Below are positions 4,027-29,498 of a stretch of 64,000 nucleotides of DNA, piece after piece. The notes below the pieces were generated by a model. It saw only the letters and a program-made list of their open reading frames with translations, had not been told where the DNA came from and made no database searches. Source of the stretch: Candidatus Bathyarchaeota archaeon (lineage in GTDB: Archaea; Thermoproteota; Bathyarchaeia; Bathyarchaeales; Bathycorpusculaceae); contig CAVYRJ010000005.1 of the NCBI GenBank assembly GCA_963770935.1, forward strand, positions 1-64,000, given 5' to 3'. Numbering within the stretch: the stretch's first letter is position 1; every line of letters starts with the position of its first letter. Both the position numbers and the translations under genes were made by a program.

Positions 4027-5079
4027 CTAACCTAGAACAGATTCAACATTCAGGTTTAGTACAACCTCGGATATGTCAGTTGCATACTCGGCGGTTCGCC
4101 TAACGCTTTCTATAATCAATCTTAAGTTGACGACTTCGTCGGCTTTTATGCTTTGTGAGCACAATACAGAGTCCTTTTCAAGTTTATGCACTTGACTTAT
4201 TTTTTCAATAACGGTTTCAGCTAAGTTGAAGTCGTGCCTAAAAAGCGCATCCATGGAACTTTCAAACATTGAGATAGCTAAACCGCTAAGCTGGCTTAGT
4301 TTTTCCAATAATTCTTCATTTACCGGATCCTTTAGCTGCAACGTGTTTTCGGATATCTTTGTCGCATGGTCAGCAGTTCTCTCCACTGCCCTGGCGATTA
4401 GTCTGTATCCTAAGCACTCTTTTTGGCTGGTTAAACCGATTTCTTTCACTACTCTCTGGTTTGAAACAGCTAGCTTCAAGAGTCTTACGATGTATAGGCT
4501 AAAGCGATTTACTTCACGGTCAGTCTCGATAACGGCTTTCGCGCTGGGATAATCAAGTTTTTTTAATGCTGCTATGGCTTCTTTATGCATAGATGAAGCA
4601 ATAATTGACATTCTACTTAGTGCATTTTGAACAGTGAGTTCAGGGTAGTTGAGTAAAACCTGCAGGGTTAGCTCAGATGGTGTATCGATTACGATTTCTG
4701 TTCCTACCAGGTAGTGCCTGGCGAAGGACTTTAGGTGGTTTCGAAGTTTTGAGGAAAGTACTTTCTGTCCCTGTGCTCTTACATGTAGGATGTTGTAGCC
4801 GCTTAAGTACGCAGAAATTGCTGTTCTCATGATTGCGTCAGGATTATCGTTTATTGAAACTTTAATGAAAGCTTCATCTTGTTTTTCTTTTTTTGGAAAA
4901 GTGGCTGGAGCAATAGATAATGAGCCGTCTTCTTCCTCCCTGACCATCATGGAGCTTCCGCGTTTTAGCTCGTTTTTGGTTGCCCAATCCTTAGGCAAAG
5001 ACAATATGAAAGTTGAACCGCCTGTTACCTGCAGTTTTCTTTGTTCTTCGTTTAGTTTTTCTACAGTTTCTTTTGACAA
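4027..5079 (-). CDS. AbrB-PhoU phosphate uptake regulator
   Basis: N-terminal AbrB-type RKLQVTGGSTFILSLPKDW plus two PhoU repeats (ERTADHA, RRTAEYA); divergent from the pst operon. Confidence 0.92.
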   Translation of the reverse strand: MSKETVEKLNEEQRKLQVTGGSTFILSLPKDWATKNELKRGSSMMVREEEDGSLSIAPATFPKKEKQDEAFIKVSINDNPDAIMRTAISAYLSGYNILHVRAQGQKVLSSKLRNHLKSFARHYLVGTEIVIDTPSELTLQVLLNYPELTVQNALSRMSIIASSMHKEAIAALKKLDYPSAKAVIETDREVNRFSLYIVRLLKLAVSNQRVVKEIGLTSQKECLGYRLIARAVERTADHATKISENTLQLKDPVNEELLEKLSQLSGLAISMFESSMDALFRHDFNLAETVIEKISQVHKLEKDSVLCSQSIKADEVVNLRLIIESVRRTAEYATDISEVVLNLNVESVLG

Positions 5080-5133
5080 AAACGCTTTAGCTCCAATATA
5101 GTTTTGTCCTACTTTATATGATATTAATTATAT

Positions 5134-5190
5134 TAGATATATCTATATAGATTATGAAGTTTATTGAGCATGATGACTTAATAATCATCA
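5134..5190. promoter_or_regulatory. AT-rich palindromes upstream of the AbrB-PhoU regulator
   Basis: Overlapping perfect palindromes TAGATATATCTA (5134-5145) and ATCTATATAGAT (5141-5152); TGATGA-N8-TCATCA at 5171-5190. Confidence 0.35.
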
Positions 5191-5497
5191 ATTGGAAAAT
5201 AATGCCTTGGATCTTAAGATTTTTAGAATTTTTTTCTCCTATAGTTTTTGTGGATCCTTGTAAAACGCGTTTTATTTTCTTTCGTGATGCTTTCTGTGAA
5301 TTCAACATTCATTCTTAATAGCGAGTTCAACAATAAATATGGGAGTCTTTTTGTGTAGGTAAGTTTAAGAATTTTTTCCTATTGAAAATTCTATTATTAA
5401 TAGATAGCTTATGAGAGAAAATATATAAAATATATAGACTATGTCGAACATGTATAAAACCGTACCAGTTATTTAGAATCCAACGAGGAAAATAATA

Positions 5498-6789
5498 ATG
5501 AAATCCATATATACAGTCGCTATAGCGATCATCGCAATAGCCGTAATAATTGGAAGTGTATTCGCTTATACTTATTTATCAAGTCCATCAGCCGAACCCA
5601 CACCAACTCCAACTCCAGCGCCAACTAACACTCCAACAATCTCGCCATCTGTGACACCTTCCGCTTCACCTGGTACTACTGCAACTCCAACCCCAAACCC
5701 TTCCTCACCAACAGTCGTCACCAACAGCAACTATTGCACCCACTCCTACTCCGAGTCCTACTCCCATCCCAACTCCAGGTCCAGCCTCAATAACAGGCTC
5801 CGGTGCGACTTTTCCGCAGCCTTTCATCGCAGCAACCATTAACACATGGCAACAAATTAGAACAAACGTACAAATCAACTACCAAGGTGTAGGAAGTGGC
5901 TCAGGTATAAATGCCCTCACAGCTAAAACTGTTGACTTCGCGTGTTCAGACGCAGCATTAACCTCCTCCCAAGCATCTGCCGCTCCAAATGCAGTTCATA
6001 TTCCAGAAACAATTGGCGCAATCACAATAGCATACAACGTTCCAGGCGTCGCAACTGGTCTGAAACTAACTGGTCCAATCATTGCTGACATTTACCTTGG
6101 AACAATTACAAACTGGAACGACCAACGAATAACATCTATCAACCCAGGAGTCAACCTGCCCAGTAACGCTATAATATCTAGTCAGACGATCTGATAGCTC
6201 CGGAACAACAAATTGGTTTACAAAATACTTAAGCTCACAAAGCACACATGGTCAAACCAAGTTGGAAGCGGCACAACCGTTCAGTGGCCAGGAACTACAG
6301 TAGGCCAATCCGGTAACAACGGCGTAGCAGGTTATGTCGATACGACACCCTATGCCATAGGTTACGTGGAATTAGCCTATGCACTCACCAATACAGTACC
6401 TGTTGCACAAGTCATGAATGCAGCTGGCAACTACATTACTCCATCGCTCGCTTCTTCAACTGCTGCTGCACAATCTATTCCGACAAGCGGATTACCAACT
6501 GGCACTGGTGATTGGTCGGGTGTAAGTATTCTCAACGCTCCAGGCGCTCAAGCATATCCGATTGTGGTTCCAACCTACATGCTAGTCTATAAGGAGCTCA
6601 ATGTCGTTCCGGGAATGACTACTTGACAAGGCTACTCAACTTGTGCAGTACATGTGGTATGTTGTCCATGACGGTCAGTCACTCGCAGCATCATTGCAAT
6701 ACGCAGCACTTCCAGCGAATTTGGTTCAGATCGACGAGACAACACTTAATTCGATTACTTTCAACGGACAAACTTTGGTGACGCATTAA
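5498..6789 (+). CDS. pstS: Phosphate ABC transporter substrate-binding protein (frameshifted in this sequence)
   Basis: TM anchor and Pro/Thr linker, then GSGATFP, NYQGVGSGSG, RRSDSSGTT and GYVELAYA spread over several frames. Confidence 0.9.
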
Positions 6790-6879
6790 CCACCCAGTCT
6801 TTTCTTTTTTCTATAACCTTTAAGTTCAAGAACTCAAAATAACAAAAAGGATCAACAGCAATACCAAGATAGGGTATCA

Positions 6880-7821
6880 ATGAAGTTTAAAATAACCATT
6901 GACAATATATTCAGAATAATTGCTGGTGCCATAGCGGCTTCTGCAATCATCATTTTGATCATCAACGCTATTGTCTTGGGCACTGGATCAACGATTATCT
7001 TTAGCCACTCAGGCGCAGGCTTTCTAACAGGAATAAACTGGAACCCTGTTGAGGGCAGAGAATCCTTTGGAGTGCTCCCTTATGTTTTGGGAACAATAGT
7101 TACTTCAGGTATCGCGTTGCTAATTGGAGTTCCTCTAAGCCTTGGCATCGCAATTTTTCTAGTGGAGATGGCTCCAAAATCAATCAGAATTCCGATATCG
7201 TATCTCGTTGAATTACTTGCAGCGGTACCTAGCGTTATCTTTGGGTTATGGGGTCTTTTTGTACTTCGTTTCTGGGTTATGGACTACATTGAAAAACCAA
7301 TCAACGCTTATTTAGGGTGGATTCCAATTTTCAGCGGGACTCCTTTTGGACTTGATATTTTTACTGCAGGCATAATTTTATCCATAATGATTATTCCCAC
7401 TGTTGCTTCAATATCCAAAGAAGTAATCAGCGCGGTTCCAAATTCAATCCGTGAAGGTGCTTACAGTATTGGGGCAACGAAGTGGGAGACAATCCGTATT
7501 TGGGTTCTTGGTTATGGTCGCTCAGGAATCTTTGGTGCAATAATTCTTGGTTTGGGCAGGGCGGTAGGCGAAACAATGGCGGTTACAATGGTAATAGGTA
7601 ACGCGATAGGTCCAAGTGCAATGCCTTATTCTCTTTTTAGACCTGGCCAGACGCTTCCATCTTTGATAGCAAACGGTTTCTTGGAGGCACCTACTCCACT
7701 TGAAAAGTCAGCTTACATGGGTGCAGGACTTGTTTTGCTCGTTTTGAGTCTTGTAATAAACATAATAGCCTACATCATGGTTACCCGTCTTCTTAAAGTG
7801 AAAGGAGGAGCTGTGGAATAA
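6880..7821 (+). CDS. pstC: Phosphate ABC transporter permease
   Basis: ELLAAVPSVIFGLWG, GRAVGETMAV. Confidence 0.95.
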   Translation: MKFKITIDNIFRIIAGAIAASAIIILIINAIVLGTGSTIIFSHSGAGFLTGINWNPVEGRESFGVLPYVLGTIVTSGIALLIGVPLSLGIAIFLVEMAPKSIRIPISYLVELLAAVPSVIFGLWGLFVLRFWVMDYIEKPINAYLGWIPIFSGTPFGLDIFTAGIILSIMIIPTVASISKEVISAVPNSIREGAYSIGATKWETIRIWVLGYGRSGIFGAIILGLGRAVGETMAVTMVIGNAIGPSAMPYSLFRPGQTLPSLIANGFLEAPTPLEKSAYMGAGLVLLVLSLVINIIAYIMVTRLLKVKGGAVE

Positions 7822-7822
7822 A

Positions 7823-8674
7823 ATGCTTAGCAAGTTGAGCAAAATGCTAAGAAGCTATGGATTTAGAAAATTCAAGAACAGAATTTTCTTTTTCTTATGC
7901 TTGCTTTGTGTAGTAATAGCAGTAATACCTTTAGCTAGTATCATTATTGAGGTTATAGTAAAGGGCGCTCCAGTGTTAAGTATCAATTTTTTGACTGCTG
8001 ATGGAATGAATAATGGCATTGGTCCCGCAATTCAGGGAACCCTAATTCTCATCGGTTTGACTAGCTTGATTGGAGTGCCTATTGGAATATTGTCGGGTGT
8101 ATACTTGGCTGAATATGGAAATAACAAGTATGCTGCAATAATGCGTTCAATTAATGATGTTCTTACAGAATTTCCATCTATAGTTATAGGAATAACAGCT
8201 TTTACTGTAATAGTTATAGGCGTTACAGGAAGCTTTTCGCCTCTTGCAGGTGCCATTGCGCTTTCTTTTATGATGATTCCTATAGTAGCTAGAACCACTG
8301 AAGAATCACTCAAATTGGTGTCTAATTCTGTCCGTGAAGCTTCACTAGCTCTGGGAATACATAAATGGCGAACGACTATCAGCATTGTTTTACCTGCAGG
8401 AAAAGCTGGTCTCATTACAGGCACGCTTCTTGCGGTAGCAAGAATTGCAGGTGAAACCGCGCCCATTTTGCTAACAATTTTGGGCAGTAGTTACTTCTTT
8501 GAAAGCTTGAATAGACCCATGGACGCTTTGCCCTTGAGGATTTTTCTGAACTCTCGATACCCCTCTCCAGAAGCCCAAGGACAAGCTTGGGGGGCAGCTT
8601 TAATATTAATTCTGATCGTTTTATCCATTAACATTATCGTTAGAGTAGTAAGTAGAAATCGTCTAAAAGGATGA
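7823..8674 (+). CDS. pstA: Phosphate ABC transporter permease
   Basis: PSIVIG, ARIAGETAP. Confidence 0.95.
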   Translation: MLSKLSKMLRSYGFRKFKNRIFFFLCLLCVVIAVIPLASIIIEVIVKGAPVLSINFLTADGMNNGIGPAIQGTLILIGLTSLIGVPIGILSGVYLAEYGNNKYAAIMRSINDVLTEFPSIVIGITAFTVIVIGVTGSFSPLAGAIALSFMMIPIVARTTEESLKLVSNSVREASLALGIHKWRTTISIVLPAGKAGLITGTLLAVARIAGETAPILLTILGSSYFFESLNRPMDALPLRIFLNSRYPSPEAQGQAWGAALILILIVLSINIIVRVVSRNRLKG

Positions 8675-8680
8675 AAGGTA

Positions 8681-9445
8681 ATGATAAACGAACAAAAGAT
8701 GCAAAGTATCAACTTAAGCGCTTGGTTTGGACAAAAACAGGTCTTAAAGGACATAAACCTAAATATGAAATCAAACGCGGTAACTGCCATAATTGGTCCA
8801 TCTGGATGTGGCAAATCCACTTTTATCCGATGCCTAAACCGAATGCATGAACTCACGCCCAACGCCAAAATGACAGGTCAAGTTTTGTTAGACGACCAAA
8901 ACATCTACGACAAGCAAGTTGATCCCGTGCAGGTTCGTCGAAGAGTCGGTATGGTGTTTCAGAAGCCAAACCCATTCCCAACAATGTCTATTTATGATAA
9001 TGTAGCTGCTGGCCTTCGGTTGACTGGAGCCAAAAAAGGCAGGAATCTAGATGAAGTAGTTAAACATAGCTTAGAGCGAGCCACGCTTTGGGATGAAGTA
9101 AAAGATGATTTAAAGAAATCTGGCACAAGCATTTCAGGAGGACAGCAGCAACGTTTGTGTATTGCACGGGCGATTGCATTGGAGCCTGAAGTTATTTTGA
9201 TGGATGAACCTTGCTCGGCTTTGGACCCAATAGCTACGTCTAAGATCGAGCAGTTGGTAGTTGAATTAAAGCGTGATTATACGGTTGTAATTGTTACTCA
9301 TAATATGCAGCAAGCTTCGAGAGTTTCGGATTGCACCGCTTTTATGTACCTTGGTTCGTTAATCGAATTTGGGCTGACCGAAAATATTTTTGAGTCTCCA
9401 AAGAACCCATTAACGGAAAAATACATTAGTGGAGAATTCGGATAG
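8681..9445 (+). CDS. pstB: Phosphate ABC transporter ATPase
   Basis: [39 protein letters not shown]. Confidence 0.97.
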
Positions 9446-9454
9446 GAGATAACA

Positions 9455-10099
9455 ATGAGCAGAATAATCGACCGCGGATTAGAAGACCAATCAGTCTTAA
9501 TGGTTAGAATGGGTGAGTTGACCTATGACACCCTTGCACTTTCGATACATGGATACCTCGAAGGAAGAAGCGTTCAAGAATCAGTAAGGGAACTGTCAGA
9601 CATTCTTCTTACAATGGCTGATAAAGTTGAAGGTGAAGCATTCCAATTAATTGCACGTTTTCAACCTGTCGCATCAGACCTTAGAACGATAAAGTCTTAC
9701 ATGAAAATTGGCAATGACTTCGCCAGATACGGCAGATATGCACTCGATATATCCTTCATCAATGATAAACTACATGGGTTAAAAGAATGTGAAACTTGGA
9801 CACGCGACTATATCAACGAAATGAGCGAAAAAGTTCTTTCAATGGTCAAAATTAGCATAGATGCCTTAAAAAAACAAGACATTATTCTTGCCAAAACAAT
9901 TTCAGAGACTGAACGCCAAGTCGACAAAATGTACTTTGATTATCTTCACAAACTAATAAAAGACGAGCAAACTAACAGTAAATGTGTATTATCGAGTGCG
10001 CTGATGACTCGGTATTTGGAGCGTATTGCCGACCATGCGGTCTATGTTTGCGAGTCAATCGTGTACATCGTGACAGGTGAAAAAGTAGCCTTAGGCTAA
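9455..10099 (+). CDS. phoU: Phosphate signalling protein PhoU
   Basis: QPVASDLR, LERIADHA; last gene of the pst operon. Confidence 0.92.
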   Translation: MSRIIDRGLEDQSVLMVRMGELTYDTLALSIHGYLEGRSVQESVRELSDILLTMADKVEGEAFQLIARFQPVASDLRTIKSYMKIGNDFARYGRYALDISFINDKLHGLKECETWTRDYINEMSEKVLSMVKISIDALKKQDIILAKTISETERQVDKMYFDYLHKLIKDEQTNSKCVLSSALMTRYLERIADHAVYVCESIVYIVTGEKVALG

Positions 10100-11232
10100 A
10101 CTGCTTTATTTAAGCAGTAAATGATGAACTGTTGCCATATATAGTTGAAGCGTTTTACTGATGGCTTCCATTAAAGATCAAAAATCATCAACTTAATGAA
10201 CTTTAGGAACTTTTTTGTACAAGCACGAATACTCCTTTTTCTAAATTGATTGTTTTTGGTCCTTATGAAAAATAGTCTTGCTATTCGTTCAAGGTTCAAT
10301 ATTTTCTATAGAGATTAAGTCTTATCTATATTTTATGTGGAAACACTACATAAGCAAAGCTTTCAAACTATGTTATTGGTGCTGCATCATGCAAAATGAA
10401 AAGAAATCAAAACAAAAAGCAAAAAAACAAAATGAGAAGCCGTTCTTTTTTCAGCGGATATAAATTTCAGGTAAGAATGGGGGGAAGAAGCTGAGCAACA
10501 AGATGGAATCAAAGAACGGAAATTCGAGACTATTCGACTGGATGTTAGCAATCGATTTTGACGTAGCAGAATGTAAATGTTCCAGAAAAAATGTCGATTT
10601 AATTGCCGAAATCTTGTCCTTATAAGATGCAAAGCCAAACTGACATTGTTTTGCCAGTGGAGACAGTTTATGTTTGTATTATTCTCTAATCTTAATGCAA
10701 TAAATGTAGTTTTTTAAAAGTTTCAAGTAATATTTATAGTCTATTGAGCCAAACGGAGATGAGAAGTGTGTATTTCGGCTTTGCAAGGCTCTGTTGTCAT
10801 ACGAGCGTCTATATCCTAAGAATAAGATTGAAGTTAGAGGTTCAAGCTATCCAAACAAACTGCAAATGAATTCCAGTTGCAAAGCATTCATTTCTCATCA
10901 ATAATAGATGAACTGCTTGAAGCCAATAATCAATAACAAGGTCTGTTGAAATCTTCATCTTATCAACTAATAATTCAAACTTTGCATGTGAGCAATGTGT
11001 TTTGTTGATTTTCCTCAGTCAGTCTTATTTTTAAATCTTTTTTTTAAAATCATAGAAGTAAAATAAAGTAACTGCTGTCCTTTTCTCTCAACGTGTTCAG
11101 CGATAACTCTTCCTTTAATCGCTAGCCTACTTCTATTATGGCTCAGTTCCCGAAAAAGCACATTTGACCCTTAATTAAATTAAAAGATGACAAAAACCTT
11201 CAAAAGCAACATGAAATCAATCATTAAACTAA

Positions 11233-11865
11233 ATGATACCTGTTCTTAATGTTAATTGGCAAAGCCCCTCAGCCGAATGCAGCCTTAGCGAACGCGATGC
11301 TGACGTGTTGGCGCTGATCGAAAACGAAAACTTAGCCACTTTTACATTTGACGGGCTTAAACGCAGAACAGGGCTCCATTCAGAAACGCTCTCACGAATC
11401 CTTAGTCGCCTCGAAGAAGAAGGCATTATTAAAAAGGAACATACTGGCTATCGTGTAACACCCAAGATAACTGAACTCAAACTTCAAGTGCCAAGAAAAG
11501 AAAATCCCACAACACCCCTAATGCAAACTTACCTTCCATCAGACCTTATGACTCAGCAACTCATCCTCAACCTTAAAGGCAAATGGTTTGGTTCCCTACG
11601 CTGGTTTGGCATCTCCGAAAACAACCATGGTGTCACATTGAAGTGGATCACCGAAGACGGTGCAATCCAGATAGCTGCAAACATCCAAGGCTCCGCTCTA
11701 AACATTGAAGCCAAATTCTTAACCAGCAACAACTTAAACTTGGCACTGAAAGCCTCTTACCAGCTGATGTCACTTATCGGCAAACTTGCCATAACCTCGC
11801 AAGCCACGAGCCAGGCCATGGCAAGAAACGTCGGCTACTTCGGCGGTTTCATGATGCCCACCTAA
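11233..11865 (+). CDS. Winged-helix DNA-binding protein
   Basis: FDGLKRRTGLHSETLSRILSRLEEEGII wHTH pattern. Confidence 0.7.
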   Translation: MIPVLNVNWQSPSAECSLSERDADVLALIENENLATFTFDGLKRRTGLHSETLSRILSRLEEEGIIKKEHTGYRVTPKITELKLQVPRKENPTTPLMQTYLPSDLMTQQLILNLKGKWFGSLRWFGISENNHGVTLKWITEDGAIQIAANIQGSALNIEAKFLTSNNLNLALKASYQLMSLIGKLAITSQATSQAMARNVGYFGGFMMPT

Positions 11866-20513: not shown

Positions 20514-20860
20514 TGTATTATACTCGTAATGTGCTTGAATTCTCTTATCCTTTGTCCTGACAAAGCAAAATCAGATTAATTTACACAAATTCATTATTCG
20601 GCTGAAGAGTCTAATGAAACAAACCAATAAGTTTGATGTATTTACTAGATTAATTGAGCCTAAAGGTCTTTGTTAATCTAATGCGTAATCTTAATAAAAT
20701 GTGAAGCCTACCAATCTTTTAGATCATTGAAACCGCCTTTTAACCAACTTATACAGTTAAAAACTCTAAATTGAGCGAGAATTTTTTTTAGTTTGAATAC
20801 TGAGCGAATAAGCACAAGTGTTATATGTATCATACAACTAAAAAATTGGGAGGGTTCAAA

Positions 20861-21819
20861 TTGAAAAACAAAATTCTATCTTTAAGTCTCATGTTACTAT
20901 TAGCAACCGTGATAATTATCTCCATTTCACCACCAGTTAAGGCTGTAGGTTTAGGGCAATGGATAACAACGTATAAAATCGAAGACTCGACAGGGCAACT
21001 TTTAATTCAATATAATCCTGCGACAAACACAACCAACATTTTAGCCCCAGTTTTACCCGGAGCCGACATTGTAGTGACGTTCACTGTTGATGTTATCGCA
21101 CCAGGTTCAGATACATTGAAGCTTGGCACGAGCTTGTCTAAATCAACATCGCATCCTAATGGATTCTGGGAACTTCTAACTGAAACCTATGACATGGGCA
21201 TCTACATACAATCCAGCATCGCAAACTACAACGTTCAAATGGACTGTCGGAACTTTTGATATGGTACTTTATGGAAAAGTTCCACTTAGCGCATCAAACA
21301 TCGCACGCCCAGTAAACGTCGTTATTTTGTCAAGTGGCTCAGGGGGTGCTCCGCTTGACTCAATAATTGTTCAAGCAACCAGCGCTGATTTAGCGAATTT
21401 CAACGTTCTCTACAGTCAACAAGAGGAAAAACTGAATTCACTCATATCAAGCGGAGTTTCTGCAAGGCTATATCGAGATTTACACTAATGTTCTCAATGC
21501 TTCAAGAGCTATAGCTAATTCAGGTGACGTTACCAATGCAATTGCGCTCTTAAATGGACTCAACGTTGCCAATCCACCAGCATCCTCAGCTATGGAATCA
21601 CTATTCTTACCTTTAGTCGGTGTACTGGCTGCGGTAGCGGTTGTGTTCGTGGTCTTGTTCCTACGGGTACGGGGAAAAATTAGCTACTTACAACTCGTAG
21701 TTGAAGACCAAATTAAAGACTTAGAAGGCTTAACGCTTAGGGCATCAAAGATCGACAGAACAATGTCGTCAAGTTTAGAATCAGTTAAAGACAGATTGAA
21801 AAGATTAGTCGGGATGTGA
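20861..21819 (+). CDS. Single-pass membrane protein with signal peptide, extracellular domain and cytoplasmic coiled-coil tail (frameshifted)
   Basis: GGAGGG before TTG; signal peptide ending VKA; three ORF fragments; C-terminal TM followed by a heptad tail; stop overlaps the next start. Confidence 0.65.
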
Positions 21820-24501
21820 TAGAAACGCGAATCTACCAGAACAGTGTTCAACTAATAGGTATCGGTTCAGCAGGCACCAACATAGTCGAAGCTTTCCTAA
21901 CCAACAAAAAGACAAAAGAGCTAATGGAAAACGACCTGACACGTCTTTCTCTTTTAGCCATCGATATAGCTGACCCTGAAATCCGAAGCCTACAAGAAAC
22001 CAATGAGCAAATAGCAAAATCAATGATTAAAGCAGGCATTCCTCGCGAACGAATGCGGCTAATCGCCCAGTCTGTAAAATTCCCGACTGCCGAAGCCATG
22101 TTCGATTTTATCAACCAAAAATACGGCGAGTACTTAGTAGGTGAAGGTTCAAAGCTTGAAAACTTCGTTCCCTGGCTACAAACCACAATGGCTATTCCAC
22201 CAATGGCTGGTGGCGCTGGCAGAAGAAGAGCTCTTGCAAAAGCAATCTATGCACTAAATTACTATCAACTCGGGATCATCCGTAATTGCATTAACGCTTT
22301 CAAAGAACAAGCGCTTTCATCTATAGTGACTCCGACTGTAATTTTGGTTTATGGACTTGGCGGTGGCACTGGAAGCGGCGTTTTCTTTGACTTTGCTAAG
22401 GCACCTTCGAAAAGTATTAGGTTCCGGCGTGGCAATCATTGCTTTCGTTATTACACCATGCGGTGGCGATGATCCCCCAGCAAAAGGATGCTCAGCCTTC
22501 GTAGCCATGAACGAACTTTCACTATTACTCAACAAGGACTACAACGAATACGTCATAAACGAATTCGGCGAACCTTACCGAAACCCTCTCAACGCTCTTA
22601 TTTACTTGCCATTGTTACCTGCCTTCTCAAAGGTTGGAAACATTGTTAGTGCCAGACAAGAAATGGACCAAATGTTCGTCGACATGCTCTACGTTTTGAT
22701 GGACTTTGACTTAGCAGACCTTCTAGGGGGTATAGGTACCGAAGTAGGACTTACCAACAATTCAGCGCATACCTTAGGCATGACCAAAGTGACGTATCCA
22801 GTTGAAGATTACATTATGGCTTACAAGTTGAACTTTGAAAGCATGCAACTATTGCAGGAATCAAGGAAAGAAAAACTTGATATCATGGAAGAAATCAACA
22901 ATGTTATTAAAGTGGACAGCGACGTTACCCGAGAACTCTTCAAGAACTATCTTATAAAAACTGGCACCTTTAATGAAGAACAGTTCGAAGAAAAGCTGAA
23001 AACCATCATAAACAGCAACCCACGGCTTGAAGACGACAGAACCTTACACGTTAAAGGTACAGAGATACAAGTTAAAAACTGGCTAGACGACATAATGAAG
23101 TTTCTATCTACAATAAAGCTTATGGGCAAAATTGGTCCCATTGAAGAGGCAATCATAAACTTAACACTGCAAAAGGACGGCCACAGAAAACTAGACAATC
23201 TTGAAATCTTACTTACAAACCTAACAAAAACCCATCTGGATTTCCCACAGCGAAAAGCAGCAATTGTGGAACGCTTAAACCAGCTCATTCCAAGCTCACA
23301 AATATTCACCCTAAGACAAAAGAAAGTCCTTGAAGATCTCGTCAACATTGCCGAGCTCGCTGAAAGATCCCTTAGCATACTTAAATTCTACGACGAAACC
23401 CGATACCTGACAGACGCATTAATGCGTTACTACGAAGTTCTACCAGATTCCAAAGCTGAACTTCAAGAGCTAAAAGACATTCAAGATGAACTCGGAACTA
23501 TTTACCTGGTTATTCAACTCATGCTAAGAACACCAGCCGACGAAGCCAGAATGATCGACGAACATTTAACATACATAAATGAAATTCTCACACGCCGCAT
23601 GCAGAAAAGAGGCAACTTTGACAATGAAGTCATGAGAGTTCAAGAGATAAAGAAACGCAAAGAATTCGACAAAACCAAGATGGAGAGACAAGTCAGAAAG
23701 TTCCTGAGCGGCAAACGATATGCAAGAGAACAACTGTTGGAAATCGATAGAGAACTTAAACGCGTTGAACAGGAAGAAGCTTTTGCAATTGAAAACCTCG
23801 ACAAAGTTGACAGCACAATCAAACTTTACGAAAAATTGGTAAAACGGTTCGAATTAGTAGCTGAATACCGCAAACGATTGAACAAGATAGTTGATTTACA
23901 CAATGAGTACAAAGCTAAGACTGCAGAAATAGTTTCACAAAAACCCTATTTCGAGAAATCAGCCGATCTAACTGAACGCGAACAACTAAAAATAATCTTC
24001 AAGATACTTACTGAACAAGAAGATACACTAACACGCGAAGTAATCTTCAAGCAAATCCTCGATATGGACCACTTCAAAGACTATATGAAAAGCGTTATCC
24101 GAGCCTTCAAGACACCAAGCATAATGGGATTCAAACCCACTTACAAGACCGACTACATATGGGTAACTATCTCGACCCCACCTAACATGTGGTCAGAAGA
24201 TCTTTCGCAAGAAGTCTACACTGCACTAGCAGGATATGTAACCAGCGAAGTTTCAAGAACAATCACAGTGCGAGTAATTGAATCAAGAGACGAATGGACG
24301 ACCCGCGTTATGGTGGTAGCCGGACGAGGCAGACCCGAAGACATGGAATCATGGGATGAAATGCAGCTCCTCTTCAGCAAATCCAGCGAATTCGAAAGAC
24401 ACCTATCACGTTCATTCCTACTAGAGCATGGAGTGCACGCTACCAAAATAGTTAAAGAACTTAACCATGCCAACAGCGGCAACAACAATAATAAAAAATA
24501 A
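21816..24501 (+). CDS. Giant tubulin/FtsZ-superfamily GTPase with coiled-coil insertion (one frameshift at ~22398)
   Basis: GIGSAGTNI (T1), GGAGRRR (T3), GLGGGTGSG (T4 signature), DFDLADL (T7-like); long charged helical middle region. Confidence 0.85.
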
Positions 24502-24536
24502 ATAACAACAGCAGAAGTTTTTTTGCCCTTCTGCCT

Positions 24537-24767
24537 TTAAGGTTTTTTCCTTAAATTAACTTTCTTTAGCAGGTTTCTTATTCGATCTGTAATTTTTGGT
24601 TTGTTGGCGTTTTTTGTTCCTTCCATTTCTCTTTCGATGATAATGGGAGGAGCATCATCACTTTTTGCTTCGACAGTATTTGGCGTAGTGTTTGTCATTT
24701 CTTTGTTTTCAACCAATTCATCTATTTTTTCAACGGATTCTGTAGTCATTTCTTTGGGTGTTTCCAA
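24537..24767 (-). CDS. Small acidic protein with basic amphipathic C-terminal helix
   Basis: Starts 2 nt after the upstream stop; ends ITDRIRNLLKKVNLRKKP. Confidence 0.5.
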   Translation of the reverse strand: METPKEMTTESVEKIDELVENKEMTNTTPNTVEAKSDDAPPIIIEREMEGTKNANKPKITDRIRNLLKKVNLRKKP

Positions 24768-24769
24768 TA

Positions 24770-25932
24770 TTACTTGCTCTGGTTCACAGTGGGTACTTCA
24801 GGAATTTGTGGTTTAGCTTCAATTTTGGGTATAACTTGCCAGTCTTCAGTCATCCAGCCCTTCTCAACTGCTTGATTCTTTAGTGCTACTACTTTTTTCT
24901 TCATGTGAGCAAACATTTGGGTAGTGTCAAAGCCGCCTAATAGCAAGGTTACGTCTACTCGGTCAGTCATGTCTTCGGTGTAGACCGGTTCAGTTACGTA
25001 GATTGATTTGAGGTTTGCTTTATCTCCAAACCACTTGGTTATTGCTAATTCGACTTTTCCCCTCTGAAGCTTATCTTTCAGGCTCAGTGGCATACGTAAA
25101 AGCACATAGAGTACTGAGACGCTTGACAGGTCAAAAGTTAAGAGTGGTTTTAGCAAGTGTCGTGTTTAACATGTTTTCCAGTGAACCATAGATCTTGTAA
25201 CTTGCACCGGTAATCAAAAGGACTGTGAACAATTTGCTGTTGAATGTTTTTGATAATTCGGTTACTTCGTCGACGAGTGTCTCTTTAGCTAAAAACAAGT
25301 TTATCATGTAATTTGCGACAGTGTTTCCTTTTATTAGGTTCACCTTGTCTGTCAACGCCTTCAAAGCTTTCAAGATAGTCGCGGTCTAAGAGAACTACGG
25401 TTGCGCCATCGATAGTTTGGCACATTTCGAGGGAAGCGTAGGCGTTGAAATGGGCATCTGCGGGTTGAACTTTGTAGGGTAATATAGCGATTGATAATGA
25501 ATTAATATTTGAATCAATAAACTTTGAAACAAAGGATGGCAATGAAGCGCTGCCTAAACCATCCCAAACTGATGAGAAAATAATTGTTCCGTGGAATTTT
25601 TCCAAGGATTTTTTCTTTAAATTCTCAACTACTGAATTATCTTTTGAAATATACGGCATTACGTTGTACCAGAAATGTGTCTTTACTTTTGCGTCTTCAA
25701 GGTCTAATACAAAGTATGGTTCAAAGCCTTCTGGCAGCCATTTGTAAATTTCCTCGCTTGATTTTTCAATAAAAATTGGTAAGGGACCTTTGGTTATGCC
25801 GTCTTTTACGAACACTTTTATAGGGTATTCACCGATGCAAACTACTGCCTGTCTAGGGAGCAAGGGCTTTAGAGATTCTATATGCTTCTCAACGCTTGCT
25901 AGAACATCAAAAGTATCTTTGCTATCTTTCAT
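24770..25932 (-). CDS. Divergent tubulin/FtsZ/CetZ-fold protein with degenerate GTP motifs (two frameshifts)
   Basis: VVCIGEYP, SSVWDGLGSA, IAILP..QP...HFNAYASL, VLLDRD, KPLLTFDLSS, VDVTLLLGG occur in FtsZ order across three ORF fragments. Confidence 0.65.
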
Positions 25933-25993
25933 CCGAGGTACCTGCATAAGCTTTAAGAGGAGTCTAAGCAAAATAAGGTTTTAGGTTGATTAC

Positions 25994-28403
25994 GTGAAGA
26001 AGCCCTCACTGAAAATTTCTGGCTTAAACTCCTGGTACAAAACGCAAAAGCAGAAGCGTAAAGAAAAGGAAGAACAGGAACGAAACCTTGAGCCTTCGTC
26101 GTTGAAAATGGTTACTTTCGCGATAACTTTGGTTGCCATGGCGCTTGGAATGTCTTTTCTGCCGCTATTCCCCCAACCACTGCCCGTTTTGATCGCTGTG
26201 TTGGTGGCGTTTGTTGCTTACATGAAACCGCAGATTGGGATGCCTATCGGCGGATTTGTCATTGGTTTAGGTTTGATGTATCATTTAGCTGATTTGTCCT
26301 TCATTTCTTTTCTAGGGGATATGGAGGTAAGAGTGGCCTTTATCGTTATTTGGATGGGGTTGTTTGTGGCTTTGCCTCTGTTCTTTAAACGGTACAAGAG
26401 TGCGCTTGCTATCGATTTTGGAATATTGGCCGTAACTATGCTTTTCTTTGCACCTCTCTACTTTTTAGCGATTCCGTTGATTTTGGCCTCAGCTGTGTTC
26501 TTTAAAAAATATGTAGCTCTCACAGTTATCTACTATGCTTTGCTGTCAGTGCCACTTCAAATTATGCAGTATTTCAAATACGTAGTTTTGCCGATTACTC
26601 AGCCTGAGTGGTGGCTTGCACCCGGTTCAAGTCCACCTCTTCTTAGTTCCCTTGAATTTAATTGGCAGAGATCTCACAGCATCGATGAGTCAGTTTCGAC
26701 TCTATGATACATCCAAGGTAATTTACGCTATTGCAGGGCAAACAACATGGACTCCGGATTGGACAGGTCGAACAATCAAAGATGCACTAACCCAGTATTT
26801 GGATTCAATACCGGGCATTTTGATGTTTGTAGTTATTGTGGCTGGGTTAGCATTGACGCTTGTATTCTTCACGAATATGTTGATAAAAGCAGGCGTTCTT
26901 GGCTATGGCGACAAGTTTTTCCAGTGTTTCACTGCAACTCTTGCAGCAGCTTTATTCTTTATTCTGGTAAGTGCTCTACAATTGCCACTCGCCTTTAAAG
27001 CTGACGTTACCCCAATTACAATGATTCTCGGTATTTTTGCGACTCTTCTCCTAACGTTGCCTGCGCTTTTTATCGATTTTACACCAAAGCAGACAACTAA
27101 TCTAAGTGAGCTTAAGCGAAAAGCGGAAGAACTTAACGAAAAATTAGGCGTTTTTGCGGCTCAAGTGCAGAATGTTAAAGAAAATATCCCTGTGGTTGTT
27201 ACTGGTCCAGAAGGAAAATCGTTAGTTATAAAGGATTCAGTTGAGGAGACTCTTAGAAAAATCCTAATGCGGAAATATGACCAATCAGAGTTAGACCAGA
27301 AATTCCAGGAACTTGCCAAACTCGGAAAGGACCAAGATTCTATAGAAGAAGATGTTAACAAAATCTTGTCGGAATACCAAATCTTTGCCAACTGCGAATT
27401 ATCTAATTGGGTAGGCAAACTAAAAGAAGCTGGCTTAGACATCAAAACACCGGTAAACTCTGATTACCAAAAAGAGATGCCCTTGGAGCAACGCATTGAA
27501 GCAATCAAACAGATTTTGGAAGCAGGCAGAGCGGTTGTGCGGGAAGTTGTTGCGGTAGTAGATCCCATTTACGGAATTATCCGACCATTGTATGATCCAA
27601 TGCTTCCTGAAAAATGCCGAGCTGTGGAATTTGCATCTCAGAAGCTTGCAACTAAAGAAGCGCCATGGATTGTCATTGAAGCGCTTGTATACTTCCCTTA
27701 ACAATTGGAGTAGGCAGTATGGAGCTGAAATCCAGACTTCCATGAAGTACCTTAAAAGCTCCTTGCCGCCAATTGCCAATTTGAGCAGTCAGGGCGAGGT
27801 TTTGCCGTTTGTCTTCGGTGAAAACACAACTAAAGTACTTGATTACGCAAAGAAGGCAGAGGCAATGTTGCAAACAGCGCAGAAACGGGTTGAGAGCGAG
27901 AAACTTAGGCATGCTTGATGTGGTTGCGTTGAAGAATGATGTGCTTGAGTTTTTAGGCATTGCCAACGACGTGTTGTCCATGCTTTATAACGATTTAATC
28001 AGCGAGGAAGACTCAATCGAACGTTTACTGCCAACCAAGGATTATCTTATGGGAGCAAAACAGCACACTTCGTGAACGATTAAAGAAGGCAACTGAAACC
28101 CTTGCTAACCCTGCAAACTATAAAATCAACCAGATAATGGAGAATCTACCGCATTACCTCTCATACGTGGATGAATCAGTACAGACACTTGCAATATACC
28201 ACGAACGCAAAGAGTTCCTACTGAATTACCCCTTGGCAGAAGCAGCCATTACGGAACAACTCAAAACCAAAGAAAAACTAACACCCAAAGACTTACCGTT
28301 CCAACCACGCTTTGCCGCAGAATACCTAAGACTCTACTACACCCAAAGGTTTGGCGAGTTTGTATATGACAAGGATGAGCAACTGCTGACAAAAAGGGCA
28401 TAA
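25994..28403 (+). CDS. Large polytopic membrane protein with long cytoplasmic helical C-terminal region (about 4 frameshifts)
   Basis: Five overlapping or adjacent ORF fragments; about 9-11 TM segments, then coiled-coil-like sequence. Confidence 0.65.
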
Positions 28404-28822
28404 CTGATAGTTTTCTTTTTTTTCTTCCTATTGTCGGTTAAAACTGTTGATGCAATCCTAAACCCTTAGTAAAATTACTTTTTAAAAGGTAAAGGCAGGC
28501 TGTAACTATTGAAACTGAAGTGAATTGGAGGTTGCAGTTGAACCGTTAAGTTTCAAGGTTGGTTTTGTTCTGGCTGAAGCTCGAAGGTTATGATGGTAAT
28601 TGTTAGTTGTGCTTTCATCGTTGTCTTTGCTGCATTTTAAAAATGTGTGGTTGTTGTTGCGACTGGCGCACAGCAAACAGTTACAACAACAACTTCTCTA
28701 ACTTCTGTTTTTGATTAATCAAGCGTTTATAAAGTTAGTCCAGAATAACCAAAACTGCTGTTGGTTACCCTTTTTATATTCCAATATACTAATTATTTCA
28801 TAGGTAATTTTGAGGAATAAGT

Positions 28823-29498
28823 ATGGCTTTTTTTACTGACCGTGTTGATGCAGGTAAACGTCTAGCTTCAACTTTGAGCAATTTTTCTGGAAAAAAAGGG
28901 ATTGTTTTAGCGATTCCAAGAGGTGGCGTACCCGTGGGCTTTGAGATCGCAAAAGCTCTTAAAATTCCGTTGGACTTGATTATTCCCCGCAAAATAGGCG
29001 CGCCCGATAATCCATGAGTTGGCTATTGGCGCCGTTGCTGAAGATGGAACCGCAATTCTCGATGACAACTTGGTTAAATATTTAGGCGTTAGCCGAGAAT
29101 ATATAGAAGAAGAGATTGAACGGCAAAAACGAGAAATCAGTCGCAGGCTAGAAACGTATAGGCAAGATGCATCCTATCCGAACCTGAAAGGGTTTGACGT
29201 TATCGTTGTAGATGATGGTATAGCTACAGGTTCTACCATGAAAGCGGCATTGGCTTCTGTCAAAAATAGAGGTGCCGCAAGTATTACGGTCGCGGTTCCT
29301 GTAGGTCCACCTTCAACTATTGAAGAACTTGAAGAAATGGCTGACCGCGTGGTTTGTCTCTACACACCTGAATATTTCCAGGCTATAGGACAATTCTACA
29401 ATGATTTTGGTCAAACGGCCGATGAAGAAGTGATAAAACTGTTGCAGGAAAGCAAGCAAAAACTTGCGTATATTTCAAAGGGAAAGGTTGCGGTATGA
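28823..29498 (+). CDS. Type I phosphoribosyltransferase-family protein (frameshift at ~29015)
   Basis: FTDRVDAG, IPRGGVPV, RKIGAPDNP|ELAIGA, VVDDGIATGST. Confidence 0.9.

Follow-up and report, generated by a model that had tools for sequence, protein, structure and literature searches.

The target of this analysis is a gene on the minus strand (25932..24770) of a 64,000-nucleotide stretch of Candidatus Bathyarchaeota archaeon DNA (assembly GCA_963770935.1, contig CAVYRJ010000005.1, positions 1 to 64,000; hereafter the window), and it encodes a genuine two-domain protein of the tubulin/FtsZ superfamily with rebuilt nucleotide loops. We are moderately confident that this protein is a non-catalytic structural or adaptor subunit of a membrane-linked FtsZl1 cytoskeletal system, which is encoded by a conserved four-gene module in Bathyarchaeia, a widespread class of uncultured archaea. 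An earlier note on the same DNA had described a cryptic, catalytically dead pseudo-GTPase of this fold, pieced together from three fragments. The strings that it quoted (CIGEYP, WDGLGSA and a series from the C-terminal domain) were all located in the window, on the minus strand and spread over three open reading frames (ORFs) in three frames with successive steps of +1. The gene opens with the ATG at 25932 (MKDSKD), and the positions of its pieces and motifs are given in Table 1.

An AlphaFold2 (AF2) model was built for the 385 amino acid (aa) ortholog at locus L006, which equals the L017 ortholog over the gene and forms the first row of a 53-sequence alignment (A2). The model has a predicted local distance difference test score (pLDDT) of 90.7, exceeding 90 in the C-terminal domain, and a predicted template modelling score of 0.89. 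All matches listed by Foldseek against the PDB are chains of the tubulin/FtsZ superfamily, led by CetZ1 (4b46; E 7.9e-15, template modelling scores 0.66/0.76) and followed by CetZ (3zid) and then TubZ, BtubA, Methanocaldococcus jannaschii FtsZ and gamma-tubulin. Re-alignment with VIA-align gave Z≥8 for 693 of 693 chains, with eukaryotic, Asgard and bacterial tubulins at Z 29-31 over residues 23-385 and OdinTubulin (7eve) at Z 31.2, with a root-mean-square deviation (rmsd) of 3.3 Å over 344 of 385 residues. The Rossmann-like N-terminal domain, the core helix H7 and the C-terminal domain are all present. The tubulin/FtsZ fold and the retained C-domain pattern of the earlier note are thus confirmed.

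Sequence searches place the protein in the same superfamily. The three window fragments alone matched no Pfam family at E≤1. PF00091 was weakly matched by all 10 orthologs extracted from the same genus (set A1; best E 1e-4, and 19.8 bits for the first member against a cut-off of 33) and by only one of seven more distant full-length members of the target family, while PF13809 (Tubulin_2) was matched neither by the three fragments nor by the 10 orthologs, the target being a compact 380-aa two-domain body. No Pfam model covers the family in searches with the 10 orthologs, and no NCBIfam model was returned for the module proteins and one tailed ortholog (0 families). A look-up in the ESM Atlas placed the target in 'hypothetical protein' clusters of Bathyarchaeota, with tubulin and TubZ clusters next. 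The family profile matches the Asgard tubulin AtubB2 (9f6v, E 2.3e-4) and CetZ (3zid, E 3.2e-3) across T4-T6; a third profile match (E 1.6) was taken as chance. The library search also yielded a further group of 420-460-aa proteins (E 1e-28 to 1e-5), here called the sister family, to which hhalign aligns the target family with 99.95% probability (E 1.8e-38, 334 columns). Among 21 scanned sister-family members PF00091 was found at E≤0.01 in all 21 and above cut-off in 11, and in many an N-terminal Zn ribbon accompanies intact GxGxxG and GGGTGSG; one degenerate subgroup, the P0056 cluster, is thaumarchaeal, its members being named as Nitrososphaerales hypothetical proteins. The profile matches to AtubB2 and CetZ, together with the hhalign link to a sister family that passes PF00091, therefore establish homology to recognised members.

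The nucleotide loops were compared in a motif table over the 53 sequences of A2 (MAFFT alignment, L006/L017 numbering), with invariant columns taken from the ten A1 orthologs. T1, usually GxGxxG, reads (C/S/G)-I-G34-E35-Y36-P37-I in the target family, with the central glycine alone kept, and T4, usually GGGTGSG, reads S-(I/V)-W126-D127-G-(I/V/L)-G-S-A; the canonical signature GGGTG(S/T)G occurs in 0 of 28 target-family rows. A T3-like region reads D-T-H-F-W-Y-N, and the tubulin-like T5 reads P-S-K-x-Q-P-x-D-A-x-F-N166-A, in which N166 is the sole column invariant across all 53 rows. In active tubulin/FtsZ GTPases the asparagine of T6 contacts the nucleotide base, and the T7 loop, NxDxx(D/E), activates hydrolysis in the next subunit. 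At T6 the target family has D-R187-D188, with R187 and D188 invariant in A1, and the CetZ and sister-family rows have N or Y-D. The motif order and the degeneration of T1 and T4 proposed in the earlier note accordingly stand, with the replacement of Asn by Arg in T6 to be added. Its claim of no T7 stands in part: canonical NxDxx(D/E) is absent from the target family in the motif table, but a T7 loop remains, about 7 residues shorter than in the nearest relatives with GTP motifs (the sister family), followed at the start of H8 by E225-x-x-E228. These two glutamates occur without exception in the ten A1 orthologs and in 19 of 21 core-family rows, and the sequence alignment puts E225 opposite the second acidic position of the sister-family T7.

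The acidic and bulky residues in the phosphate loops argue against canonical GTP binding. With the pocket loops rebuilt (T1 to IGEYPI, T4 to WDG(I/L/V)GSA, T6 Asn to Arg), the target has most likely lost the ability to bind or hydrolyse GTP in the usual manner. The earlier note's description of the protein as catalytically dead is likewise read from the loop sequences and may hold. The target is a superfamily member by fold and profile homology, lacking the T1, T4 and T6 motifs of active tubulin/FtsZ GTPases and falling below the Pfam cut-off. The replacement residues in T1, T4 and T6 are themselves conserved, and the pocket face and H8 face are among the most conserved parts of the protein, which suggests that both longitudinal surfaces are still in use. 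Alternatively, the target could still be a nucleotide-dependent polymerising homologue with a non-canonical pocket, forming its own filaments independently of FtsZl1. In favour, the model shows the entire fold, H7, H8 and C-terminal domain included, with high confidence, T1 retains its central Gly and T4 its G-x-G-S, few columns are as conserved as those of the pocket, and E-x-x-E lies where relatives have their T7/H8 acidic residues. Against it, E and Y-P stand in place of T1 glycines, W and D in place of the first two phosphate-loop glycines and R in place of the base-contacting Asn, T7 is shortened, and a thaumarchaeal FtsZ-like protein with T4 AGKAGSA did not polymerise in yeast (PMC3684127). 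We regard this alternative as rather improbable.

The target gene is no chance reading, since an ortholog occurs in 13 of 24 further genomes of the genus and the ten that were extracted are uninterrupted single open frames (378-670 aa) with the same motifs. With a profile of these ten, 136 proteins were recovered at E≤1e-3 from 1.84 billion representatives, of which 51 also reach E≤1e-30, and a scan of species genomes yielded 64 target loci. All but four record titles of these loci name Bathyarchaeota, Bathyarchaeia or Bathycorpusculum, the exceptions being 'uncultured archaeon' (three loci, two isolates), one 'Nitrososphaerota archaeon' and one 'Acidoferrum' contig. The gene is single-copy in 32 of 201 Bathyarchaeia genomes, mainly in two families (f1, 8/27; f24, 22/43), and the window's own genome (91% complete) contains no second copy of the target family. 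The ratio of nonsynonymous to synonymous substitution rates (dN/dS) has a median of 0.135 (range 0.097-0.261; 55 pairs from 11 close orthologs, dS 0.19-1.05; all 11 loci used, with target rows read past the natural stop at codon 382 trimmed), similar to FtsZl1 (0.113) and a neighbouring phosphoribosyltransferase (PRTase, 0.127). The family is under purifying selection, and the neutral decay that the earlier note had held out as the contrary outcome is not seen.

The fragmentation of the gene in the window is most likely due to indel errors of the assembly and not to biology, because relatives differ by one base at each break, the flanking genes are broken alike and the orthologs are unbroken. 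Contigs of four public metagenome runs (X1-X4), 90-99% alike, were aligned to 24400-26100; X2 and X4 gave no coverage of breaks 1 and 2. The base at 25340 (break 1) is omitted in one contig each of X1 and X3, the sole covering runs, and the base at 25155 (break 2) in the single covering contig (X1), and orthologs read continuously through both places (GVDRxGxLIKGN and ALLKPLLxFD). At break 3 one contig each of three runs inserts a base, after 24786 (X4), 24788 (X3) and 24789 (X1). The gene probably does not end at the TAA in 24770-24772 and probably continues to 24537 through a 76-aa ORF that matches the C-terminal tails of 456-523-aa orthologs; this ORF also has a weak FtsA_C match (E 0.01, 17.2 bits) under the cut-off of 27.4. 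When the intact module proteins of the relative at L017 were mapped on the window, 10 frame changes were found over 20825-29462 (8.6 kilobases (kb)), all of them +1 (UNK332 2, FtsZl1 1, target 2, MEMB800 4 and PRTase 1; the neighbours are described below). A programmed +1 frameshift, considered in view of the uniform step, was rejected as relatives lack the extra base and orthologs run in one frame. The 'cryptic' three-fragment organisation of the earlier note is therefore not borne out.

That the gene is a real pseudogene, decaying through frameshifts in this genome, would account for three frame breaks within ~1.4 kb of assembled sequence, and the aligned contigs do come from relatives and not provably from the same strain. 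Against this, the mapping of L017 proteins revealed no in-frame stops and no large deletions, each target piece is 60-71% identical to the L017 ortholog, the PRTase and other flanking genes show the same break type, relatives differ by exactly one base each time, and orthologs elsewhere are intact and under purifying selection; we consider a pseudogene most improbable. As observations on the assembly itself, all five consecutive genes carry single-base frame changes, a systematic indel bias is suggested, and other 'split' genes in the window are equally suspect. The case illustrates how indel-rich assemblies make intact genes appear 'cryptic'.

The target is accompanied by three genes. UNK332 (~332 aa) and FtsZl1 (~890 aa; PF13809 match of 51-56 bits) lie on one strand. 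The target runs convergently with FtsZl1 and divergently from MEMB800, which encodes a polytopic membrane protein (~800 aa), and the four form one conserved module. FtsZl1 of the window has intact GIGSAGTN and GGGTGSG, followed by a coiled coil and a C-terminal domain. UNK332 has two hydrophobic segments, one N-terminal and one near the C-terminus, and is predicted from these to span the membrane once. MEMB800 has transmembrane-like segments within residues 34-361 and then ~440 helical aa that are predicted to be cytoplasmic, for which the ESM Atlas gave no usable match; it presumably shares a promoter with the target in the short region between them. Neither MEMB800 nor UNK332 has a Pfam family, NCBIfam gave 0 families for all four module proteins, and vWA, OmpA and P-loop GTPase genes were not found among the four. 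Of the 64 loci, all 64 have MEMB800 next to the target, 59 have FtsZl1 and 53 have UNK332; at four of the five loci without FtsZl1 the contig runs out. Among the 201 Bathyarchaeia genomes, 32 have the target, 33 a strong FtsZl1 match and 30 both.

MEMB800 could itself be the chief partner, with the target as the cytoplasmic scaffold of a membrane complex and FtsZl1 a mere neighbour. The two genes are adjacent and divergent at every locus, with a gap of ~60 nucleotides (nt), a tighter link than that to FtsZl1. Against this stands the co-occurrence of target and FtsZl1 by genome, both being of the tubulin superfamily, and we consider such a scaffold unlikely as the whole explanation; it and a partnership with FtsZl1 are not mutually exclusive.

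The termini of the orthologs vary. C-terminal tails longer than 30 aa occur in 21 of 55 full-length loci and consist of an acidic or Pro-rich linker with a repeated basic KPKRTRRTKK-like end, and open N-terminal extensions longer than 40 aa occur in 10 of 55, of which at least three look like artefacts of start-codon picking. At L042 (5570-6670 and upstream) a low-complexity N-terminal extension of ~295 aa contains KKKGFFSFLR twice, a motif that may resemble the amphipathic membrane-targeting helices of MinD and FtsA. As a separate observation, the extensions are highly variable (C-tails across L022-L079), with some linkers Pro/Thr-rich and a TEPTT repeat at L033. The basic tails might instead bind DNA, making the target an adaptor between the module and nucleic acid with a TubZ-like segregation role, and not membrane; the repeated basic motifs in the 21 tailed orthologs and the TubZ chains among the top Foldseek matches would fit, but two of the four module genes encode membrane proteins, many orthologs have no tail, and neither a DNA-binding adaptor nor a centromere-like repeat was seen, although no search was aimed at them, and we consider a role of this kind very unlikely.

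Returning to the target as a non-catalytic subunit beside FtsZl1, the gene neighbourhood and the co-occurrence by genome point to FtsZl1 as its partner, and any role as a cap, a nucleator or a heteropolymer partner, as the earlier note had imagined, would rest on the same evidence. The target may dock head-to-tail onto itself or onto FtsZl1 through its conserved pocket loops and the E-x-x-E of H8, and it could be attached to the membrane by way of its basic tails or of MEMB800. An obligate heteropolymer, in which FtsZl1, with a reduced N-domain, would supply the single functional GTP site and the target a complete two-domain body with both longitudinal faces, is a more specific version that we find improbable. 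Several observations weigh against the role beside FtsZl1. The target is convergent to FtsZl1 and not co-transcribed with it, and one locus with ample flank (L067, 15 kb around the target) is a true exception, with target and MEMB800 present and no FtsZl1 or UNK332 by tblastn; it is the only such locus. Two genomes have the target only (G152 and G219, 75-76% complete) and three FtsZl1 only (G144, G166 and G175), all but G166 and G175 being less than 90% complete. The AF2 model of the FtsZl1 N-domain has a pLDDT of 57.8, a low confidence at which the FtsZl1 interfaces are not readable. About 24 of 55 orthologs have neither extension, so tail-mediated tethering cannot be general. A nucleotide or some other ligand could be bound in a pocket made of the strongly conserved replacement residues, and the metagenome contigs, being alike but not identical, attest unbroken close relatives and not the same strain.

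If this reading holds, the target would add a second, non-catalytic tubulin-fold subunit to the FtsZl1 machine in Bathyarchaeia. Degenerate tubulin/FtsZ paralogues are known, such as the thaumarchaeal FtsZ-like protein and the non-exchangeable site of alpha-tubulin, and the heteropolymer, if real, would parallel alpha/beta-tubulin specialisation as an archaeal case of separate evolution. Such a membrane-anchored polymer could then be the main tubulin-type cytoskeleton in the module-bearing Bathyarchaeia of family f1, where the nine genomes searched have no strong PF00091 match, possibly serving division or membrane remodelling. The case bears on how polymers of the tubulin superfamily diversify by subunit specialisation outside eukaryotes, and it singles out two proteins, or four if the membrane partners are counted, on which this can be tested. 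No published description of the target family or of its link to FtsZl1 was found in the literature on Bathyarchaeia FtsZ/tubulin and on FtsZl-1/FtsZ-like proteins, supplementary trees aside.

Table 1. Features of the target gene, its surroundings and compared loci. Positions are those of the window unless a locus is named.
Feature	Position	Strand	Description
ORF	25285..25971	minus	228 aa
ORF	25131..25373	minus	80 aa
ORF	24770..25156	minus	128 aa
Target, piece 1	25342..25932	minus	residues 1-~200; aligned to T1/T4 of relatives
Degenerate T1 CIGEYP	25822-25839	minus	piece 1
THFWYNV	25660-25680	minus	piece 1
Degenerate T4 WDGLGSA	25546-25566	minus	piece 1
T5 LPYKVQPADAHFNA	25441-25482	minus	piece 1
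T6 LLDRDYLE	25369-25392	minus	piece 1; R replacing N
GVDRQGE	25339-25359	minus	piece 1
Frame break 1	25337..25340		one extra base in assembly; between GVDRQGE and LIKGN
Target, piece 2	25134..25340	minus	residues ~201-269: LIKGN, H7, shortened T7, S7, GASYKIYGSLENMLNTTL
VDEVTELS	25251-25274	minus	piece 2; E-x-x-E, start of H8
LENMLNTTL	inside 25155-25208	minus	
Frame break 2	25150..25156		one extra base in assembly; between ...NTTL and (L)KPLLTFD
Target, piece 3	24770..25156	minus	C-terminal domain and C-terminal helices
KPLLTFDLSS	25121-25150	minus	piece 3
VLYVLLRMP	25088-25114	minus	piece 3
DRVDVTLLLGG	VDVTLLLGG part inside 24932-24964	minus	piece 3
Frame break 3	24786..24789		one base missing in assembly; repair would read into tail ORF
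Candidate C-terminal tail	24537..24767	minus	76-aa ORF; acidic linker, basic end KPKITDRIRNLLKKVNLRKKP at 24540-24602
Intergenic region, target/MEMB800	25933..25993		short; shared promoter presumed
MEMB800	25994..28400	plus	polytopic membrane protein, ~800 aa; divergent neighbour; read in 5 frames
FtsZl1	21816..24501	plus	FtsZl1/Tubulin_2 GTPase, ~890 aa; convergent neighbour; 2 frames, break near 22399-22412
UNK332	20825..21816	plus	~332 aa; directly upstream of FtsZl1; read in 3 frames
UNK332/FtsZl1 junction	21756-21863; L017 10822-10857		also 45 other loci
L017 UNK332	10855-11853	minus	332 aa
L017 FtsZl1	8161-10821	minus	PF13809 56 bits; GLGSAGTN, GGGTGSG; coiled coil
L017 target	7001-8158	plus	convergent to FtsZl1, 2 nt between stops
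L017 MEMB800	4537-6939	minus	800 aa; divergent from target, ~60 nt gap
Separate tubulin-like family, L081	6007-7395	minus	
Separate tubulin-like family, L082	6952-8316	plus	
Separate tubulin-like family, L083	6872-8233	plus	
Separate tubulin-like family, L084	6984-8351	plus	

Further observations concern FtsZl1 itself. Its N-domain (alignment A3, 33 loci) has a mean column identity of 88% and is unusually conserved in comparison with the target, MEMB800 and UNK332, and it contains an invariant MDFDLADLLGG that by eye is T7-like. The conserved N-terminus, (T/M)-(R/K)-I-Y-Q-N-S-V-Q-L-I-G-L-G, directly follows the UNK332 stop (...GGG ATG TGA). At 43 of 46 loci the conserved stretch opens with a Thr codon (ACG in 12 of 12 inspected), at the other three with ATG, and the GTG inside ATGTGA is in frame in some loci and one base out in most. 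The arrangement points to a non-canonical ACG start or to coupled re-initiation.

Other cytoskeletal genes were also searched. PF00091 was not matched at E≤0.001 in the window's own genome (91% complete), in a search whose control matched 13 of 14 well-known genomes, and the one PF13809 match there is the neighbouring FtsZl1. Snf7 (PF03357) was not matched in this genome, in an insensitive search in which the Sulfolobus control matched only below cut-off. In family f1, nine module-bearing genomes have weak PF00091 matches (E 2e-6 to 2e-4), presumed to be the module genes themselves, or none; 11 genomes have strong matches (E≤1e-29) without the module, and seven have neither. In family f24 module and strong match often coexist, and the exclusion in f1 is suggestive and no rule. 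A sister-family profile (A4), run at E≤1e-20 on 301 Thermoproteota genomes, matched only target-family genes, in four genomes, and no sister-family genes. Four Bathyarchaeia regions around 455-463-aa tubulin-like genes were examined and set aside as a different family (LRFLTIGLGHCGGKIA, no Zn ribbon) without module genes nearby. This separate Bathyarchaeia family (454-463 aa) starts (M/L)RFL(T/V)(I/V)GLGHCGGKIA and matches PF00091 at about 1e-22 to 1e-27, and the neighbours of two of its loci (L081 and L084) seem partly shared.

One of the closest known systems is that of FtsZl1 (Tubulin_2, PF13809), for which Makarova and Koonin in 2010 predicted a central place in a membrane-remodelling machine and described clustering with membrane proteins (PMC2875224). 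The partners that they list for archaea are A1 ('mixed alpha and beta'; MA2713), A2 ('membrane-associated') and a membrane GTPase (PMC2875224). The target module also clusters with membrane proteins; in contrast, the target has no PF13809 match, and no second tubulin-fold partner is named in the portions of text and supplement 6 consulted (PMC2875224). The architecture of the FtsZl1 family (FtsZ-like N-domain, long coiled coil and helical C-domain) is that of the neighbouring gene and not of the target.

CetZ proteins (4b46, 4b45 and 3zid) head the Foldseek matches (E 7.9e-15 to 2.3e-13) and share the two-domain body, but they keep GxGxxG and GGGTGSG, and by title their entries are GDP- or GTPgS-bound, whereas the target has IGEYPI and WDGxGSA at an identity of 14-16%. 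With T1 and T4 degenerate it falls outside the CetZ class, and it groups with the TACK-archaeal sister family, as judged by hhalign. Tubulins proper (OdinTubulin 7eve, BtubA, alpha/beta/gamma and AtubB2) have the highest Z (29-31; rmsd 3.2-3.8 Å over ~340 residues), including the C-terminal helices, and the T5 of the target resembles their PS...NA pattern. In concept the target is like alpha/beta specialisation, in which the nucleotide of one subunit is not hydrolysed. It differs in its identity of 10-16%, in lacking the GTP signature, in its shortened T7 and in having beside it no tubulin partner of similar size, its neighbour being the ~890-aa FtsZl1.

The Zn-ribbon sister family (420-460 aa; P0058, P0064, P0071 and others) shares with the target the GV(D/G)RxG hairpin, HFNAY, GRSxEI(F/Y)G and SDRIDxxLLLGG, and unlike the target most of its members keep GxGxxG, GGGTGSG, the T6 Asn and a longer T7 with D/E-x-x-D. 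The thaumarchaeal P0056 cluster (Nitrososphaerales) has a T1 like G-x-G-x-x-G and an N-terminal Zn ribbon, which the target lacks. For the thaumarchaeal FtsZ-like protein Nmar_1262, the published account gives the variant T4 AGKAGSA, no canonical T7 and no polymerisation in yeast (Ng et al., 2013; PMC3684127). Compared by this published motif, Nmar_1262 appears to be the nearest published case and the same kind of degenerate paralogue, a TACK-archaeal protein of the tubulin superfamily whose T4, like that of the target, ends in G-S-A.

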